Shown here in pieces: positions 8,934 through 22,560 of a stretch of 48,811 nt of DNA. The position numbers and the translations under genes were made by a program. The notes under the pieces are model-generated. The model was given only the letters and a program-made list of their open reading frames with translations. It was not told the origin of the DNA and ran no database searches. Source of the stretch: a virus (lineage: Duplodnaviria; Heunggongvirae; Uroviricota; Caudoviricetes); the IMG/VR virus record IMGVR_UViG_2706794677_000013. The stretch is one strand, 5' to 3'. How positions within the stretch are numbered: position 1 is the first letter of the stretch; each line of letters begins with the position of its first letter.

Positions 8934-9791
8934 ATGCTGTTTGTGCTTATTCTAAGCCACCGGGCAGCATCATACGGGGCAATTATGGCCGCATTACCAT
9001 ACATGCAACTGTACATAGCTGATTACCTGGCTGACACCATGCATTTGTCAGCAGAGGAGCATGGTGCGTATTTGTTGCTGATGTTCAATTACTGGCAAAC
9101 AGGAAAGCCAATACCTAAAAACAGGCTGGCAAAAATTGCCCGTCTGACTAACGAGCGATGGGCTGATGTTGAACCATCCTTGCAGGAGTTTTTTTGCGAT
9201 AACGGCGAGGAATGGGTGCATCTTCGGATTGAGGAAGATCTGGCATCAGTCAGGGAAAAATTAACCAAAAAATCAGCCGCAGGAAAAGCATCTGTTCAGG
9301 CCAGAAGAAGCAGAAAGGAAGCAGATGTTCAAACAAAACAAGAGAGAAATTTAACAGGTGTTCAAACAGATGTTGAAGTGGTGTTTGAACATGATGTCAA
9401 CACAAAGGCAACTAATAAAGATACAGATAAAGATCTAAAAACAGATCCCCCCCTAAATCCCCCCCGGGGGAATCGAGGTGTCAAAAAGTTTGACCCTCTG
9501 GATATTGCTTTGCCGAACTGGATTTCTGTCTCGCTTTGGCGTGAGTGGGTTGAATTTCGCCAGGCATTGCGAAAACCGATTCGAACGGAGCAGGGCGCTA
9601 ACGGGGCGATACGGGAGCTGGAAAAATTCCGCCAGCAGGGTTTTTCACCTGAGCAGGTGATTCGACACAGCATCGCCAATGAATACCAGGGCTTGTTCGC
9701 GCCGAAAGGTGTTCGACCTGAGACGTTACTCCGACAGGTTAACACCGTCTCGTTACCGGATAGTGCGATCCCGCCAGGCTTCAGGGGGTAA
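8934..9791 (+). CDS. ydaU: YdaU-like phage replication protein (DUF1376-type), 285 aa
   Basis: Sequence recollection; followed 6 nt later by a DnaC-like ATPase gene (replication module arrangement). Confidence 0.7.
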   Translation: MLFVLILSHRAASYGAIMAALPYMQLYIADYLADTMHLSAEEHGAYLLLMFNYWQTGKPIPKNRLAKIARLTNERWADVEPSLQEFFCDNGEEWVHLRIEEDLASVREKLTKKSAAGKASVQARRSRKEADVQTKQERNLTGVQTDVEVVFEHDVNTKATNKDTDKDLKTDPPLNPPRGNRGVKKFDPLDIALPNWISVSLWREWVEFRQALRKPIRTEQGANGAIRELEKFRQQGFSPEQVIRHSIANEYQGLFAPKGVRPETLLRQVNTVSLPDSAIPPGFRG

Positions 9792-9797
9792 CTGACC

Positions 9798-10224
9798 ATG
9801 AAAAATATTGCGACAGGCGACGTTCTTGAACGTATCCGCAGACTGGCCCCGTCACATGTAACCGCGCCATTCAAGACGGTAGCGGAGTGGCGCGAGTGGC
9901 AACTTTCCGAAGGCCAGAAACGTTGTGAGGAGATCAACCGTCAGAATCGTCAGTTGCGGGTGGAAAAAATTCTGAATCGCTCTGGCATCCAGCCATTGCA
10001 CCGCAAATGCTCGTTTTCGAATTACCAGGTGCAGAACGAAGCGCAGCGATACGCGTTGAGTCAGGCGAAATCCATCGCTGATGAACTGATGACCGGGTGT
10101 ACAAATTTTGCGTTCAGCGGAAAACCTGGTACCGGGAAGAACCACTTAGCGGCAGCTATCGGGAATCGCCTGCTGAAAGACGGTCAGACAGTGATTGTGG
10201 TTACCGTGGCTGATGTTATGAGCG
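9798..10224 (+). CDS. ydaV: YdaV-like DnaC/IstB-family helicase loader, 5' part only (runs into N gap)
   Basis: Walker A motif GKPGTGKNHLAAAIG; ORF truncated by N run at 10225. Confidence 0.75.
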
Positions 10225-10474
10225 NNNNNNNNNNNNNNNNNNNNNNNNNNNNNNNNNNNNNNNNNNNNNNNNNNNNNNNNNNNNNNNNNNNNNNNNNNNN
10301 NNNNNNNNNNNNNNNNNNNNNNNNNNNNNNNNNNNNNNNNNNNNNNNNNNNNNNNNNNNNNNNNNNNNNNNNNNNNNNNNNNNNNNNNNNNNNNNNNNNN
10401 NNNNNNNNNNNNNNNNNNNNNNNNNNNNNNNNNNNNNNNNNNNNNNNNNNNNNNNNNNNNNNNNNNNNNNNNNN
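10225..10474. other. Run of 250 N
   Basis: Literal n characters. Confidence 1.
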
Positions 10475-10694
10475 GCGTTAATTCAGGTTGGATGGCTGGT
10501 CGAAAATGACGGAGGGCTTTCTCTACCTAACTTTGAACGTCATAACGGAAAAAGCTCTAAAAAAAACGGGCGGTTACAAACGAGCGAGTAACAAAAATAC
10601 GCGAACTGAAACGAAAAGGTAACGCTGCCAGCGTTACACAAACGGATCAAAAAGCGTTACCAGAGGAAGAGGAAGAGGAAGATCTAAATACTGA

Positions 10695-11030
10695 TCTCCC
10701 CCTCGCCAAAAACGAGCGTCTAAAAAATTCGAGCCGGAGGCTATTGAGCTGCCCGATTGGTTGCCGGAAACACTCTGGCATGAGTGGGTCCGGTTCAGAC
10801 AGGCATTGCGAAAACCGATTCGAACGGAGCAGGGCGCTAACGGGGCGATACGGGAACTGGAAAAATTCCGTCAGCAGGGTTTTACACCTGAGCAGGTGAT
10901 TCGACACAGCATCGCCAATGAATACCAGGGCCTGTTCGCGCCGAAAGGTGTTCGGCCTGAGACGTTGCTCCGACAGGTTAACACCGTCTCGTTGCCGGAC
11001 AGTGCGATCCCGCCAGGCTTCAGGGGGTAA
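10695..11030 (+). pseudogene. Second, diverged copy of the YdaU-like C-terminal region (fragment; in-frame TGA immediately upstream at 10692..10694)
   Basis: Translation ...KKFEPEAIELPDWLPETLWHEWVRFRQALRKPIRTEQGANGAIRELEKFRQQGFTPEQVIRH... is near-identical to the C-terminus of the 8934..9791 protein. Confidence 0.5.
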
Positions 11031-11036
11031 CGGACC

Positions 11037-11325
11037 ATGAAAAATATTGCGACAGGCGGCGTTCTGGAACGCATCCGCCGACTGACCCCGCCACATGTAA
11101 CCGCCCCATTCAGAACGGTAGCGGAGTGGCGCGAGTGGCAACTTGCTGAAGGCCAGAAACGTAGCGAGGAGATCAACCGCCTGAATCGCCAGTTGCGGGT
11201 GGAAAAAATTCTGAATCGCTCAGGCATCCAGCCGTTGCACCGTAAATGCTCGTTTGCGAATTACCAGGTGCAGAACGACGGCCAGCGATACGCGTTAAGC
11301 CAGGCGAAATCCATCGCCGATGAAC
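11037..11325 (+). CDS. Second copy of YdaV-like DnaC-family gene, 5' part only (runs into N gap)
   Basis: MKNIATGGVLERIRRL... about 90 percent identical at protein level to the start of the 9798 gene; truncated by N run. Confidence 0.6.
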
Positions 11326-11575
11326 NNNNNNNNNNNNNNNNNNNNNNNNNNNNNNNNNNNNNNNNNNNNNNNNNNNNNNNNNNNNNNNNNNNNNNNNNNN
11401 NNNNNNNNNNNNNNNNNNNNNNNNNNNNNNNNNNNNNNNNNNNNNNNNNNNNNNNNNNNNNNNNNNNNNNNNNNNNNNNNNNNNNNNNNNNNNNNNNNNN
11501 NNNNNNNNNNNNNNNNNNNNNNNNNNNNNNNNNNNNNNNNNNNNNNNNNNNNNNNNNNNNNNNNNNNNNNNNNNN
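11326..11575. other. Run of 250 N
   Basis: Literal n characters. Confidence 1.
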
Positions 11576-11591
11576 AGTTTCAGGAGGATTT

Positions 11592-12014
11592 ATGGCGAAA
11601 CCTTTTACTCCCGAACAGCGGGAAGAACTGAAGACGCGAATTGTGGAACTCGTGCATCAGGACGGTCGGGTCACGATTCGGCAGTTGTCAGATGAAACAG
11701 GTATCAGTCGTGCGTCTGTCGGTCGCTTATGCATAGAACTGGTCGCAAGTGGTGATGTATATAATTCTGGCTACGGCTTATTCCCGTCTGAACAGGCTCG
11801 CAAGGACTGGCAAAGCGCCCGCAAAAAACTCTCGAGAGTAAAGGTGAGGAAACCGGTTGTTGTTGATCCGGACCTTATCTGGTCATTACCTGACGGAGAA
11901 ATACGCCGCTACGACAGGCGCCTGAATATAATCTGTCGCGAGTGCCGGAAGAGCGAAGCTATGCAGCGTGTACTGGCTTTCTATCAGGGTAATTTTCAGG
12001 AGGCGATACTGTGA
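11592..12014 (+). CDS. Hypothetical nin-region protein, 140 aa, C-terminal CRECRK motif (paralog A of 15721..16137)
   Basis: ATG at 11592 preceded by caggagg; the ORF track merges it with upstream sequence only because the N run happens to keep frame. Confidence 0.6.
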   Translation: MAKPFTPEQREELKTRIVELVHQDGRVTIRQLSDETGISRASVGRLCIELVASGDVYNSGYGLFPSEQARKDWQSARKKLSRVKVRKPVVVDPDLIWSLPDGEIRRYDRRLNIICRECRKSEAMQRVLAFYQGNFQEAIL

Positions 12015-12071
12015 ATGAAATTAGCTATCAGGCTTCAATTACCGCTGGCATTCGCATCAAAGGAGAGGAGC

Positions 12072-12428
12072 ATGGAAATAAAACCAGAAGATGAGTTAAG
12101 CAATATCGTTTTATTTCCGGTAAAAGAGGATGACCCTCGTAATCAGGTTAATTTTCTTTATGAGCCATCGGAAAGACCATATTGCCATCACGCCTCTGTA
12201 CGGGTTGACGAAAAAGAGCGTCAGGTCCGCTGTAAAATCTGCGGTGCGGTTGTGGAGCCGTTTGACTGGATGCTCTCTGTGGCAAAAAGAGAAACCAGAC
12301 TGGCAGATGATGTAAGGCTATTGCGCCAGGAGGAACAGGAAAGGCGGAGAAATATAGAAAAGCTGATACAGATTGAGCGTAACGCGAAAGCGCGGATACG
12401 CAGGGCGACAAAATCCAGAACTGAATAA
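12072..12428 (+). CDS. Hypothetical protein with CxxC-type Cys pairs and basic coiled-coil C-terminus (start at MEIKPEDE)
   Basis: ATG preceded by aaggagagg; Cys pairs CHH...CKIC. Confidence 0.5.
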   Translation: MEIKPEDELSNIVLFPVKEDDPRNQVNFLYEPSERPYCHHASVRVDEKERQVRCKICGAVVEPFDWMLSVAKRETRLADDVRLLRQEEQERRRNIEKLIQIERNAKARIRRATKSRTE

Positions 12429-12575
12429 TTAAATTTAGCACTGTTAAAAATTTAATCCTTAACCGGAGGGATTTCTGCACCCTCAAATCATCAGGAGACC
12501 ACCCGAAAGGGCGGGGAGCAGTCACACATCTGTTTCCGATAGCCCCGTTCTAATGCTACACTCTTTGATATTTTT

Positions 12576-13262
12576 ATGACCCCAATAAACATATTTATGA
12601 CAGTTGCTGATTTCAAACGGCCCAAATTGGAGCTCCCAAACGGGGCAAACAAACTACTACTGCACTCTTGCTGTGCTCCATGTTCCGGTGAGGTGATGGA
12701 GGCGCTTCAGGCCTCGGGAATCGACTACACCATCTTTTTCTACAACCCGAACATTCATCCTCAGAAAGAGTATTTAATTCGTAAGGATGAGAATATTCGC
12801 TTTGCTGAACAACACGGCGTGCCGTTTATTGATGCTGATTACGACACAGACAACTGGTTTGAACGAGCCAAAGGAATGGAATGGGAGCCCGAACGAGGGA
12901 TCCGTTGCACCATGTGTTTTGACATGCGTTTTGAGCGGACAGCGCTGTACGCCGCTGAAAATGGTTTCAGTGTGATCAGCAGTTCACTGGGCATTTCACG
13001 CTGGAAAAATATGCAGCAGGTTAACGACTGTGGGCGGCGAGCCGTCGCGCATTATCCGGGCATGGTGTACTGGGATTATAACTGGCGCAAGCAGGGCGGC
13101 TCGTCCCGTATGATTGAAATCAGCAAGCGCGAAAAATTCTATCAGCAGGAATATTGTGGCTGTGTGTATTCTCTGCGCGATACCAATCTACACCGCAAAT
13201 CTCAGGGACGCCCTCTTATCAAAATTGGTCAACTCCACTACGGTAAAGAAGAGAAGGAGTGA
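12576..13262 (+). CDS. queH: QueH-like protein (DUF208, epoxyqueuosine reductase family), 228 aa
   Basis: N-terminal [10 protein letters not shown] motif plus later CTMC and EYCGC motifs, which I recognise as the QueH/DUF208 signature. Confidence 0.6.
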
Positions 13263-13489
13263 TTTTATGGGGCACCTTTCTGATTGATTTCATATTGGCG
13301 AGGTAAGTAGAATGACTGCGGGTGCTTGAGGCTATCTGCTTCAGGCATGAACACCAAAAGGCAGATAGAGAAAAGCCCCAGTTAACATTACGCGTCCGGC
13401 AAGACGCTTAACATTAATCTGAGGCCAATTTCATGCTTTGCACATGTAGGTTAGCCTCTTACATGCCGAAAGGCAAGGAGAAGCAGGCT

Positions 13490-13645
13490 ATGAAGCAGCA
13501 AAAGGCGATGTTAATCGCCCTGATCGTCATCTGTTTAACCGTCATAGTGACGGCACTGGTAACGAGGAAAGACCTCTGTGAGGTACGAATCCGAACCGGC
13601 CAGACGGAGGTCGCTGTCTTCGTAGACTACGAATCCAGGAAGTAA
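13490..13645 (+). CDS. hok: Hok/Gef-family membrane toxin, 51 aa (HokD/RelF-like); the longer in-frame ORF from 13433 may be a mok-like leader
   Basis: MKQQKAMLIALIVICLTVIVTALVTRKDLCEVRIRTGQTEVAVF... is a textbook Hok-family sequence; structured leader with stem ctatctgc/gcagatag upstream. Confidence 0.85.
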   Translation: MKQQKAMLIALIVICLTVIVTALVTRKDLCEVRIRTGQTEVAVFVDYESRK

Positions 13646-13721
13646 GAGTGACCGGGCGGGGAGCTGATCCCATCCCCGCCCACCTCTGATGTGTCAGGCA
13701 TCCTCAACGCACCCGCACTTA

Positions 13722-13765
13722 ACCCGCCCATCGCTGTGATCTCTCAGCGTTTCGGCGGGTTTTTT
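13722..13765 (+). terminator. Hairpin plus T-run downstream of hok (intrinsic terminator / hok mRNA 3' fold)
   Basis: cccgcc...ggcggg stem followed by tttttt. Confidence 0.5.
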
Positions 13766-13894
13766 GTTGTTTATTTCCGGTGAATTTGATTCGCGCACCT
13801 TCGCAGATAGAATCGACTCACTTAAGTAGCGCGCAGGGAGAAGAGGGATGGACCCCGAACAGGGGAGAGCTATTTATCTGGAAGGATTCTGAAG

Positions 13895-14182
13895 ATGAAA
13901 ATCGAAGAATTGCGTGAAATTTTTAGTGAAAATGGCCTCTATGCTGTGCGCGTTGAGAATGGAGCGATTGTCAGCCATTGCCGCATTAGATGTTTGCAAT
14001 CTCAACAAAGGAAGAGCGGTGCTGTGTTATTTTATTTTTGTAATGGACTTCTGACGGACGGTTTTATTTTGCGTGAGGACGAATTTGTCACATCATTACG
14101 GGTTTTGAAAGAGATTGGTTTTAAGGCTGGTTTTCTGCTTTTGCTGAAGAATAAACTCATCTACAATCTTGAGCAGGATTGA
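13895..14182 (+). CDS. Hypothetical protein, 95 aa
   Basis: ORF with RBS-like ggaagga upstream; no recognisable family. Confidence 0.4.
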   Translation: MKIEELREIFSENGLYAVRVENGAIVSHCRIRCLQSQQRKSGAVLFYFCNGLLTDGFILREDEFVTSLRVLKEIGFKAGFLLLLKNKLIYNLEQD

Positions 14183-14220
14183 ACTCCTGCTGTGTAACAC
14201 CGTGCCACCGGAGAAAGCCG

Positions 14221-14469
14221 ATGGCACATATACAACTGGTCAAACAAACCTCTTCCGGATTACTTCTCCCGGCGACGCCGGAGAGTTGCGATTTTCTGCA
14301 TCAAATCAAAATAGGTGAGTGGATACACGCAGACTTTAAGCGTGTGTGTAACTACGCATTCCACAAGCGTTTTTTCAAACTCCTGCAACTGGGTTTCGAT
14401 TACTGGACTCCGGTCGGTGGGGCGATCACGCCTCGCGAACGAAAACTGGTGTCCGGTTTCGTTGATTAC
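14221..14469 (+). CDS. DUF1367-like nin-region protein, N-terminal part only (runs into N gap); near-identical to the start of 20088..20687
   Basis: MAHIQLVKQTSSGLLLPATPESCDFLHQIKIGEWIHADFKRV... duplicated at 20088. Confidence 0.55.
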
Positions 14470-14719
14470 NNNNNNNNNNNNNNNNNNNNNNNNNNNNNNN
14501 NNNNNNNNNNNNNNNNNNNNNNNNNNNNNNNNNNNNNNNNNNNNNNNNNNNNNNNNNNNNNNNNNNNNNNNNNNNNNNNNNNNNNNNNNNNNNNNNNNNN
14601 NNNNNNNNNNNNNNNNNNNNNNNNNNNNNNNNNNNNNNNNNNNNNNNNNNNNNNNNNNNNNNNNNNNNNNNNNNNNNNNNNNNNNNNNNNNNNNNNNNNN
14701 NNNNNNNNNNNNNNNNNNN
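14470..14719. other. Run of 250 N
   Basis: Literal n characters. Confidence 1.
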
Positions 14720-15720: not shown

Positions 15721-16137
15721 ATGGCAAAAGTTTTTACACAGGAAGAGCGTGAAAAAATTAAGGAGCAGGTTGTTGAGTTGGTACGCCAGAGTGGGCGCGA
15801 GACGTTAAGGCAACTGGAGGCCAAGACAGGTGCGACAAGATATCTGATGAGCATTCTTGCCAGAGAGTTGGTTGCCAGTGGCGATGTATACAACTCTGGC
15901 TATGGGTTATTCCCGTCTGAACAGGCTCGTAAGGATTGGAAAAACGCCCGCAAAAAACTATCCAGGGCAAAGGTGAAAAAAACGGTTGTGGTTGATCCTG
16001 ACCTTATCTGGTCATTACCAGACGGAGAAATACGCCGCTATGACAGGCGTCAGAACATAATCTGTCGCGAGTGCCGGAAGAGTGAAGTTATGAAACGTGT
16101 ACTGGCATTTTATCAAGGAAATCTTCGGTATTTATAG
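15721..16137 (+). CDS. Hypothetical nin-region protein (paralog B of 11592..12014), 138 aa
   Basis: ATG at 15721 preceded by ggagg; C-terminal two thirds about 80 percent identical to paralog A, including the CRECRKSE motif. Confidence 0.6.
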   Translation: MAKVFTQEEREKIKEQVVELVRQSGRETLRQLEAKTGATRYLMSILARELVASGDVYNSGYGLFPSEQARKDWKNARKKLSRAKVKKTVVVDPDLIWSLPDGEIRRYDRRQNIICRECRKSEVMKRVLAFYQGNLRYL

Positions 16138-20087: not shown

Positions 20088-20687
20088 ATGGCGCATATAC
20101 AACTGGTCAAACAAACCTCTTCTGGTTTACTTCTCCCGGCGACGCCGGAGAGTTGCGATTTTCTGCATCAAATCAAAATAGGTGAGTGGATACACGCAGA
20201 CTTTAAGCGTGTGCGTAACTACGCATTCCACAAGCGTTTTTTCAAACTCCTGCAACTGGGATTCGATTACTGGACTCCGGTCGGTGGGGCGATCACGCCT
20301 CGCGAACGAGAACTGCTGTCTGGTTTCGTTGATTACCTGTGCGAATCAGTTGGTCGGGAACACACGCCAGCCCTGAGTGATGCCGCAGAGCAATACCTTA
20401 ACACCGTTGCGACTCGTAGAACCCGGGATACGGCGTTGCTAAAGTCGTTTGAGGCTTTCCGCGAGTGGGTAACCATTCAGGCCGGATTTTACACCGAGCA
20501 TATTTATCCGGACGGTAGCCGTGGGCGTCGGGCAAAATCCATCGCTTTTGCGAATATGGACGAAGTCGAGTTTCAGCAGGTTTATAAATCTGTACTGAAT
20601 GTGCTGTGGAACTGGATTCTGTTCCGTAAATTCTCCTCTCAGGAGGAAGTTGAAAATGTGGCCGCACAACTACTGGAGTTTGCGTAA
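20088..20687 (+). CDS. DUF1367-like nin-region protein, 199 aa, complete copy
   Basis: Complete ORF directly upstream of the DUF1364-like and Q-like genes. Confidence 0.6.
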   Translation: MAHIQLVKQTSSGLLLPATPESCDFLHQIKIGEWIHADFKRVRNYAFHKRFFKLLQLGFDYWTPVGGAITPRERELLSGFVDYLCESVGREHTPALSDAAEQYLNTVATRRTRDTALLKSFEAFREWVTIQAGFYTEHIYPDGSRGRRAKSIAFANMDEVEFQQVYKSVLNVLWNWILFRKFSSQEEVENVAAQLLEFA

Positions 20688-21624: not shown

Positions 21625-22560
21625 CGTCAGGAAAGCAGGGGAGAATGCTGCTAGTTGGGCAACTGGTCTTTCTGCTCCAAATTATAACAGAGACCAGTTA
21701 TAGTTTCGGTGCTGTGTTTTTTTTACAATATTGTGATAACACATTGCTGGCGGGAGTTTTGATATTTCTTGGCAGGGGCTGATGATGCGTTATCCTGATG
21801 TCGTCAACTCATATAAAATGAGATGAGAGATCATTGCAGGGTGGTTTGTAATTCGCTGTTTAGCGGGACAATATGTTGTCTGATACAAGACACCCGACGC
21901 CTCAGATTACTATAATAAAGACGAAGCATCCTTTGTATTGACCAACCGCCTGTTTAGGCGGTTCTTTTTGGGCTGGTTTATTGTATGCCAAATGATTATT
22001 AAAAAGGTTGTGTTAATAACAAGATCCGAAATAATATGCCTGCATATTTTTATCTTGCTTATATTCTGCATATTGTGCATAGCAGGCTCATCCCTGCAAT
22101 CAAAACTGTATGATGAGTATTTTTTGTTTTCCTTTTTTCCAGTCATCTGATGATGACCTGCTTCTTTTTAATCCGGATCGACATCAGTTTTTTAAGATAA
22201 TTCCTGCGAGTTATATGCATAAATGCCACAAACTCCGCATTTTATGTGGTTGGGAGTTGCCGGGCGCGCAGTGAGTTTGCTAAGAAAACTCCTGCATGGT
22301 GAATCCCCCTGTGCGGTGGGGTGATACCATTAACCTTTTCTGTCGCCGACAGGTATCACGAACATTTTGTTCACCGGGAGGCACCCGGCACCATGCACTT
22401 CAATAGATTCTCTCCACATTATGGATATTCTTTCAGAATATCCCACGCAGACTTTGTGTAAATGTTAACAAATGTGCGTTTTATTTGATCTGATTCGCTG
22501 TTTGAGCGTCCAAAACAACGGTATATATAATCCTTTACTATATGACATATGTGAGGAAAA

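Follow-up and report, generated by a model that had tools for sequence, protein, structure and literature searches.

A hok/mok/sok toxin-antitoxin cassette, very probably intact, in the replication region of a Rac-type lambdoid prophage

Among type I toxin-antitoxin systems, hok/sok is the founding member. In the form carried by plasmid R1 (hok/mok/sok, or parB) its established role is post-segregational killing, and it is from this paradigm that the elements of the hok mRNA are defined and for this system that Hok toxicity, neutralisation by Sok, RNase III cleavage of the duplex and 3′ processing of the mRNA have been shown (PMC9841398). The closest homologue of the locus described here is hokW-sokW, found together with mokW in Stx2 phage 933W and Sakai prophage 5 (Sp5). 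HokW is toxic and is neutralised by sokW in a manner that depends on the Sok promoter and partly on RNase III and Hfq; a promoter-less sokW mutant was made with primers YO-421/422, which alter the motif TAGGTTA (PMC8621323). After treatment with mitomycin C the sokW RNA vanishes and HokW appears in the inner membrane, RecA-dependently and about 1 h before the endolysin, and a hokW-sokW deletion mutant releases two-fold less phage (PMC8621323). More widely, hok genes show enrichment in prophages and occur in 9.3% of Escherichia phages (bioRxiv 10.1101/2025.08.07.668861). Further relatives reside in E. coli K-12, among them hokC (gef)/mokC/sokC at a chromosomal, non-prophage locus and hokD (relF) in the Qin prophage.

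Here we analysed a 48,811-nucleotide stretch of DNA from a virus of the Caudoviricetes (IMG/VR record IMGVR_UViG_2706794677_000013; the whole stretch is hereafter the window), in which inspection of the letters had suggested a hok/sok-type toxin locus among phage early genes. We conclude with high confidence that positions 13284-13765 contain a hok/mok/sok type I toxin-antitoxin cassette that is intact and self-contained and belongs to the hokW/hokD allele group; as a moron, it resides in the replication/nin region of a lambdoid prophage of the Rac type. The system at this locus is already known, and its exact sequence is in RefSeq, where it is annotated as hokD. In agreement with the original prediction, every family-defining sequence element that we examined is present. 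The interval singled out there, 13263-13765, begins at the stop codon of QueH, the gene upstream, and ends with the terminator, and so the whole cassette lies inside it.

The 51-aa Hok-family toxin named in the original prediction is encoded by an uninterrupted reading frame at 13490..13645 on the plus strand. Re-translation, in which a frameshift or internal stop was searched for, yielded neither. The resulting peptide, MKQQKAMLIALIVICLTVIVTALVTRKDLCEVRIRTGQTEVAVFVDYESRK, matches Pfam HOK_GEF (PF01848) across profile positions 1-42 of 42 (E=4e-23; 81 bits, where the cut-off is 22 bits) and carries the conserved TR(K)xLCE motif. It scores under the cut-off of the NCBIfam Hok models (55 vs 73 bits), and the family assignment is therefore based on Pfam and Rfam. 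Identity is 98% with HokW (50/51 residues, the one change being E50R), 90% with K-12 HokD and 78% with HokC, falling to 43% with R1-type Hok and 37% with HokB; residue 50 lies in the C-terminus, the most variable part of Hok. In frame with hok, a 70-aa mok reading frame begins at the ATG at 13433 and occupies 13433..13645, the same layout as in mokW and mokC. Both genes are preceded by a Shine-Dalgarno sequence that can be read directly from the letters, AAGGAG at 13475..13480, 9 nt upstream of the hok ATG, and GAGG at 13421..13424, 8 nt upstream of the mok ATG. Of 75 homologous copies, 61 retain the start and frame of mok, and the other 14 have lost one or the other.

Comparison with hokW-sokW gave 92% DNA identity over the cassette, with the in-frame mok, the sok promoter, the Sok hairpin and the tac, ucb, dcb and fbi elements all the same. 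The window allele departs from the tested hokW-sokW in a hok promoter spacer region that is 10 bp shorter, an insertion of 23 nt within the terminator loop, the sequence of the Sok 5′ tail and the E50R change. The hok -35 region is unlike that of 933W hokW, about 7 of 17 positions differ across the Sok 5′ tail and mok start (GCAAAGCAUGAAAUUGG vs GUUCAGCAUGGAUUGAG), and the terminator hairpin after fbi is kept in the window allele, whereas 933W diverges there. The two cassettes also differ in position, the one in the window lying in the replication/nin region and 933W hokW lying on the opposite strand in a moron region by the tail-fibre genes. Given this different genomic position, the induction-linked behaviour of 933W hokW may not transfer to the window locus.

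The more distant relatives place the cassette within the wider family. An R1-type locus on pTC1, which we used to represent R1 hok/mok/sok, has the same architecture and RNA elements as the window; both match the Rfam family RF01794, and their sok promoters and dcb blocks can be aligned. They differ in that the Hok proteins are about 43% identical, the Sok and target sequences are not the same, and the R1 locus is on a plasmid whereas that of the window is in a prophage. At hokC the mok frame is likewise in phase and the leader matches RF01794 at 118 bits, in a non-prophage setting as opposed to the prophage of the window; in K-12 a copy of IS186 lies about 20 nt past the hokC stop, where the fbi region would be.

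The PGAP name would assign the window gene to a hokD/relF-type locus, and this assignment was rejected. K-12 hokD does resemble the window gene in position, in that it lies within a lambdoid prophage and has a Rem-like gene after it; in the window that gene is orf95, 67% identical to Rem. K-12 hokD can be aligned, however, over no more than query 214-465, which begins just ahead of the hok start, and it lies directly after relBE without an RF01794 leader, mok or sok. The window cassette, by contrast, has the full leader, mok and sok, with QueH as its upstream neighbour in place of relBE. No relE homologue adjoins hok at any of the 84 related loci. Because K-12 hokD has no leader, mok or sok, the label 'hokD' on the window gene reflects protein similarity (90%) only.

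The mok frame, the sok promoter and the fold-back elements tac, ucb, dcb and fbi could all be placed by alignment and folding. A candidate hok promoter at 13284..13313 on the plus strand combines the -35 sequence TTGATT (13284-13289), an 18-nt spacer and the -10 sequence TAGAAT (13308-13313), and was returned by a consensus scan with 9 of 12 positions matching. Its -10 is kept in nearly all of 56 unique homologous cassettes; the -35 region varies with context, and in the window allele it is 10 bp shorter than in HannyBb and 933W. We place the 5′ end of the hok mRNA at 13318-13320, the Rfam model beginning at 13320, 7 nt past the hok -10, which predicts a full-length transcript of about 446 nt (13320..13765, plus strand). 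The leader (13320-13495) matches RF01794 over model positions 1-157 of 157 at 117 bits (E=4e-26), well above the gathering score of 59 bits.

The transcript begins with the putative translational activator, tac (GGGUGCUUGAGG, 13320..13331), which pairs with fbi in the minimum free energy (MFE) structure and with ucb in the Rfam consensus. It is followed by the structured leader noticed in the original prediction. The ctatctgc/gcagatag stem described there is real, and leader match and fold together refine it to 13332-13339/13361-13368, where it forms the inner part of the 5′ hairpin (inner hairpin 13332..13368, plus strand). The upstream complementary box, ucb (AAGCCCCAG, 13373..13381), was placed by folding and serves as an anti-Shine-Dalgarno sequence of mok; in the closed fold it pairs with the mok Shine-Dalgarno region at 13419-13425, and its alternative partner is tac at 13320-13327. 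In the Rfam consensus, which represents the open form, the mok Shine-Dalgarno sequence pairs instead with the downstream complementary box, dcb (GCCUC, 13454..13458, plus strand). The block that contains dcb, UAGCCUCUUAC, is invariant in 9/9 aligned loci, with R1-type, hokB and hokC included.

Downstream of the toxin gene, the hairpin and T-run reported in the original prediction proved to be two elements, both of them in the MFE structure, namely a hairpin at 13654-13681 and a terminator at 13721-13765. The former, on the plus strand, is a GC-rich stem-loop of 9 bp (-20.9 kcal/mol) and is expected to protect the end of the hok mRNA once this has been processed to its truncated form; it is kept in 24/24 sequence variants through compensatory changes, with free energies of -15 to -21 kcal/mol. 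The intrinsic terminator, on the same strand, has an 8-bp outer stem (13721-13728/13754-13761), a branched loop and a T6 run (13760-13765). A simple terminator scan found neither of the hairpin terminators, because their loops exceed 8 nt, and they were placed by homology and folding instead. Relative to most homologues the terminator loop of the window allele contains a 23-nt insertion, in common with loci L012, L014 and L058. The loci that share it with the window are a few IMG/VR contigs.

Between these two elements lies the putative fold-back inhibitory element, fbi (CCUCAACGCACCC, 13702..13714, plus strand), which is complementary to tac with a one-base bulge. The long-range tac/fbi pairing, with its single bulged base, is present in the MFE structure of the full-length mRNA (-189.6 kcal/mol; z = -8.5 vs shuffles). 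The two elements covary between clades, reading GGGUGC/GCACCC in the hokW type and GGCGC/GCGCC in the R1 type, and among hokW-type alleles the bulged base may be C, T or A with no change in the paired bases. When RNA duplexes of the 5′ end with the 3′ untranslated region were predicted, both the window and 933W gave a slightly shifted register; the canonical tac/fbi pairing is that of the whole-transcript MFE structure.

These elements are arranged as expected for a closed-to-open switch, and in silico folding is consistent with such a switch. All of the pairs that we forced (ucb with the mok Shine-Dalgarno sequence, tac with ucb, and the mok Shine-Dalgarno sequence with dcb) are canonical, and the nascent first 40-50 nt of the hok mRNA fold into a metastable tac hairpin. 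In constrained folding with fbi present, the closed form is favoured over the open form by 19.7-20.6 kcal/mol, a difference that narrows to 1.6-2.7 kcal/mol after trimming to 13684-13690. The open form was never the MFE structure, and unconstrained folding of the 3′-trimmed mRNA did not return the open tac/ucb conformation. The fold energies therefore support the switch and do not demonstrate it.

The antisense RNA, which had not been located by eye in the original prediction, could be placed by homology to the annotated sokW of 933W and sokC and sokB of K-12. Predicted Sok occupies 13365..13441 on the minus strand. It starts with the G at 13441, the position with which the annotated K-12 sokC start aligns, and its 3′ end falls at 13371 by the sokW annotation or at 13365 by that of sokC. 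A conserved promoter accompanies it at 13448..13476 on the minus strand, made up of the -35 sequence TTGCCT (13476-13471), a 17-nt spacer and the -10 sequence TAACCT (13453-13448). This is the single site of the TTGCCT-17-TAACCT pattern in the window, and it can be aligned with the promoters of sokW, sokC, sokB and R1-type sok. A generic consensus scan of promoters found the hok promoter and did not find that of sok, whose -10 agrees with the consensus at just 3 of its 6 positions. On the plus strand, window positions 13447-13453 read TAGGTTA, the complement of the sok -10 and the same site that was altered in the promoter-less sokW mutant.

As a 71-nt RNA, Sok folds with 15 nt of single-stranded 5′ tail ahead of one long hairpin and a terminal UUUU (-28.6 kcal/mol; z = -4.7), and this architecture of tail, hairpin and U-tail is common to all of the allele variants. 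The predicted RNA spans both the mok Shine-Dalgarno sequence (13421-13424) and the mok start codon (13433). As judged from sequence, a cis-encoded Sok gene with its own promoter and terminator would thus overlap the mok initiation region. The Rfam family RF01794 bears the name 'sok' and yet sits on the hok-sense strand, its K-12 matches lying opposite the annotated sokC and sokB. The plus-strand match in the window consequently marks the hok leader, the target of Sok, and not the Sok gene.

The original prediction placed the cassette among phage early genes, and it is indeed flanked by genes of the replication and nin regions, in a lambdoid prophage of the Rac type. Window positions 1-24932 are collinear, at 99.8-100% identity, with a Rac-type prophage that E. 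coli JP538 carries at ttcA, with the exception of a block at about 10225-14719 that is absent from the JP538 prophage. The latter carries intR, xisR, recT, recE, kilR, sieB and ydaT/U/V, followed by DUF1367, DUF1364, DUF1133, essD and rrrD. The block of about 4.5 kb is 98.5-99.9% identical to part of another prophage, at the ybhA/modC site of FDAARGOS_943/944, and contains a second ydaV, DUF977, a 137-aa ORF, QueH (identified by Pfam at 221 bits), hok/sok, a Rem-like ORF and the 5′ part of DUF1367. Both of its junctions fall in masked N-runs, at 10225-10474 and 14470-14719. FDAARGOS_943/944, in which the cassette is 100% identical, was considered as a model for the genomic context and rejected; it is collinear with the window only over about 10475-14469, and the JP538 Rac-type prophage was used for this reason. 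The rest of the window holds trkG and genes for terminase, portal, tape-measure and gpJ. With its lysis and structural genes the prophage could plausibly be induced. Since the recombined block either interrupts or duplicates the ydaV replication gene, its inducibility is uncertain.

Of 5426 complete E. coli genomes, 4713 carry the cassette or a close relative of it, in a median of 2 places each and at most 9, and related cassettes are present in 79 phage records. The exact allele was found in two RefSeq chromosomes, under the PGAP name hokD. Neighbours vary among the 84 related loci, and include a 933W-type YgiW-like gene, Rem-like/DUF1367 genes and others, and homology among these loci begins at the hok -10 and stops at fbi or at the terminator. 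Varied neighbours and homology bounded in this way are as expected of a portable moron, and on this comparison the cassette would qualify as one.

These data allow us to propose how the cassette would work, on the model of R1 hok/sok and Sp5 hokW-sokW. The hok promoter would drive a transcript of about 446 nt in which tac at the 5′ end pairs with fbi at the 3′ end while ucb masks the mok ribosome-binding site. With translation of hok coupled to the mok leader frame, the full-length mRNA would be stable and could not be translated. Its 3′ end would then be trimmed slowly, as far as the hairpin at 13654-13681, with the loss of fbi, allowing tac to capture ucb and expose the mok ribosome-binding site. 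For as long as it is made, the unstable Sok RNA would pair with the trimmed mRNA, and RNase III would destroy the duplex. Once Sok falls, whether through prophage induction, transcription shut-off by an infecting phage or loss of the element, Mok and Hok would be translated, and the 51-aa Hok would enter the inner membrane and kill or lyse the cell. We speculate that, since the cassette shares its orientation with the early rightward genes, transcription reading through upon induction would meet the sok promoter head-on and could help to switch Sok off.

By analogy with Sp5, the most likely role of the cassette is to bring about faster lysis and phage release on induction. The original prediction was that the locus may act as an addiction or abortive-infection element; the sole direct experiment on the closest homologue found another role, help with lysis and with phage release on induction (PMC8621323). 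Both of the roles first suggested are plausible, and exclusion of other phages is a second possibility. We regard it as possible, if not our favoured reading, that the cassette is functional and that its main benefit is abortive infection, in which a superinfecting lytic phage halts host transcription, the short-lived Sok decays and Hok kills the cell ahead of the invader's maturation, to the protection of its lysogenic kin. The collinear prophage copy in JP538 has other exclusion genes, for example sieB and kilR. Pecota and Wood reportedly found in 1996 that R1 hok/sok excludes T4. A role for Hok in phage defence is described in the literature summarised by a recent survey, which also reports the enrichment of hok in prophages; however, the same survey saw no enrichment of hok beside defence systems (bioRxiv 10.1101/2025.08.07.668861), and the experiments on the closest homologue address induction and lysis rather than defence (PMC8621323). 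A main function in addiction, whereby stable hok mRNA would kill cells that lose the prophage or the recombined block and so stabilise the element, seems to us unlikely, and less probable than abortive infection. It is the classical role of R1 hok/sok (PMC9841398), the hokW of 933W is annotated 'prophage maintenance', and the cassette sits inside a mobile 4.5-kb block and is found in several phage contexts. Nevertheless, deletion of hokW-sokW from Sp5 left growth unaffected (PMC8621323), no stabilisation effect has been reported for hokW-sokW, and an integrated prophage is lost spontaneously less often than a plasmid mis-segregates.

A further reading would deprive the cassette of any role, in that it could be an intact-looking copy that is silent or decaying and confers no phenotype through impairment of the hok promoter, of processing or of the toxin. 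We consider this improbable, more so than either of the functional alternatives to a role in lysis. The grounds for suspecting it are the change to the hok -35 region by a 10-bp deletion, the 23-nt insertion in the terminator loop, the NCBIfam scores under cut-off, the loss of the mok start or frame in 14/75 related copies and the want of the entire leader at K-12 hokD. Pedersen and Gerdes reportedly found in 1999 that none of the five hok loci in E. coli K-12 is active, from which it would follow that hok loci often decay. In the window, however, the reading frames, both Shine-Dalgarno sequences, both -10 sequences, tac, ucb, dcb, fbi, the Sok hairpin and the 3′ hairpin are intact and match those of the functional hokW-sokW. 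Despite the deletion the hok promoter still matches the consensus at 9/12 positions with an 18-nt spacer, and the differing C-terminal residue is in the most variable part of Hok. Together these observations favour the reading of an intact cassette, for which assistance in lysis remains the most likely role.

The value of the locus as a discovery is small, and its practical value lies in annotation. Public records call the gene 'hokD' and annotate neither mok nor Sok, and the coordinates given here correct this for the locus. They also correct the strand of the antitoxin, which automated pipelines would misplace on account of the Rfam 'sok' match on the hok-sense strand.

The sole mildly new observation is the hypervariability of the Sok tail between alleles. 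Among the 56 unique cassettes, conservation from the hok -10 to fbi is 92-100%, excepting three spots, which are the loop of the 5′ hairpin, the Sok 5′ tail together with the mok start, and the Hok C-terminus together with the 3′ hairpin. The single-stranded 5′ tail of Sok, 14-15 nt in length, takes about 20 variants among the 56 unique phage copies, of which that in the window is the third most common; the Sok hairpin, in contrast, is almost invariant. Franch et al. are said to have shown in 1999 that in R1 the 5′ tail of Sok makes the first contact with the hok mRNA. Neutral drift could account for the variability and is the null, as any change in a cis-antisense pair is automatically matched in the partner RNA. 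More tentatively, the hypervariable tail might reflect selection for mutually orthogonal toxin-antitoxin pairs. If this were true, the hok/sok copies of co-resident prophages (a median of 2 and up to 9 per genome) would not cross-neutralise and each would keep private control of its toxin, and the hypervariable Sok tail may merit a dedicated comparative study.

The hok/mok/sok cassette lies on a block of about 4.5 kb (window 10225-14719) that is situated within ydaV and is missing from the Rac-type prophage of E. coli JP538, which is elsewhere collinear with the window. The same block shows 98.5-99.9% identity to part of a different prophage, located at the ybhA/modC site in the genomes FDAARGOS_943 and FDAARGOS_944. 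Besides hok/sok, the block contains a second ydaV, DUF977, a 137-aa ORF, QueH, a Rem-like ORF and the 5′ portion of DUF1367. Its presence produces three pairs of internal repeats in the window (9534-10086 and 10773-11325; 11732-11997 and 15861-16126; 14221-14469 and 20088-20336), and both of its junctions fall within masked N-runs.

The gene immediately upstream of hok in the window (12576-13262, plus strand) encodes a homologue of QueH, the epoxyqueuosine reductase (Pfam PF02677, 221 bits); this prophage-borne gene adjoins the cassette in only 4 of the 84 related loci. On the other side, shortly 3′ of the hok terminator and 5′ of the Rem-like ORF (13895-14182), we observed a second promoter-like site on the plus strand (TTGATT-16-TAGAAT, 13786-13813) whose hexamers are identical to those of the hok promoter; chance alone predicts about 0.8 sites of this type over the region scanned.

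Elsewhere in the window, Rfam matched the gammaproteobacterial sRNA STnc100 at 22264-22450 on the plus strand (86.6 bits; gathering score 47). The match falls between the Q-like DUF1133 gene and the genes for lysis, a region where one would expect a late-promoter leader transcript. At 2079-2228 the collinear JP538 prophage (L093) carries ralR, which encodes the toxin of a further type I toxin-antitoxin system, ralR/ralA; by collinearity the corresponding window position is 1656-1911, almost wholly in a masked, unreadable N-run. In phage 933W (L001), sRNA-Xcc1 was matched at 81-169 on the plus strand (69 bits; gathering score 53), approximately 2.4 kb upstream of hokW, and Rfam gave no sRNA-Xcc1 match near the window's cassette.

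The Rfam family named for the sok antitoxin, RF01794, matches the window at 13320-13495 on the plus strand, which is the hok-sense strand. At the E. coli K-12 loci used for comparison, the family matches the minus strand at 602-754 of the hokC/sokC locus (L010) and at 667-818 of the hokB/sokB locus (L011), in both cases opposite to the annotated sok gene. Automatic annotation from RF01794 would therefore place the antitoxin on the wrong strand.

One variable spot within the cassette is window 13423-13447, which corresponds to the Sok 5′ tail on the minus strand and to the mok start on the plus strand. This segment is hypervariable, with about 20 variants among the 56 unique cassettes, whereas the rest of the locus is near-invariant and the Sok hairpin adjoining the tail almost invariant. 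Allele-specific recognition between Sok and hok may be set in this hypervariable segment.
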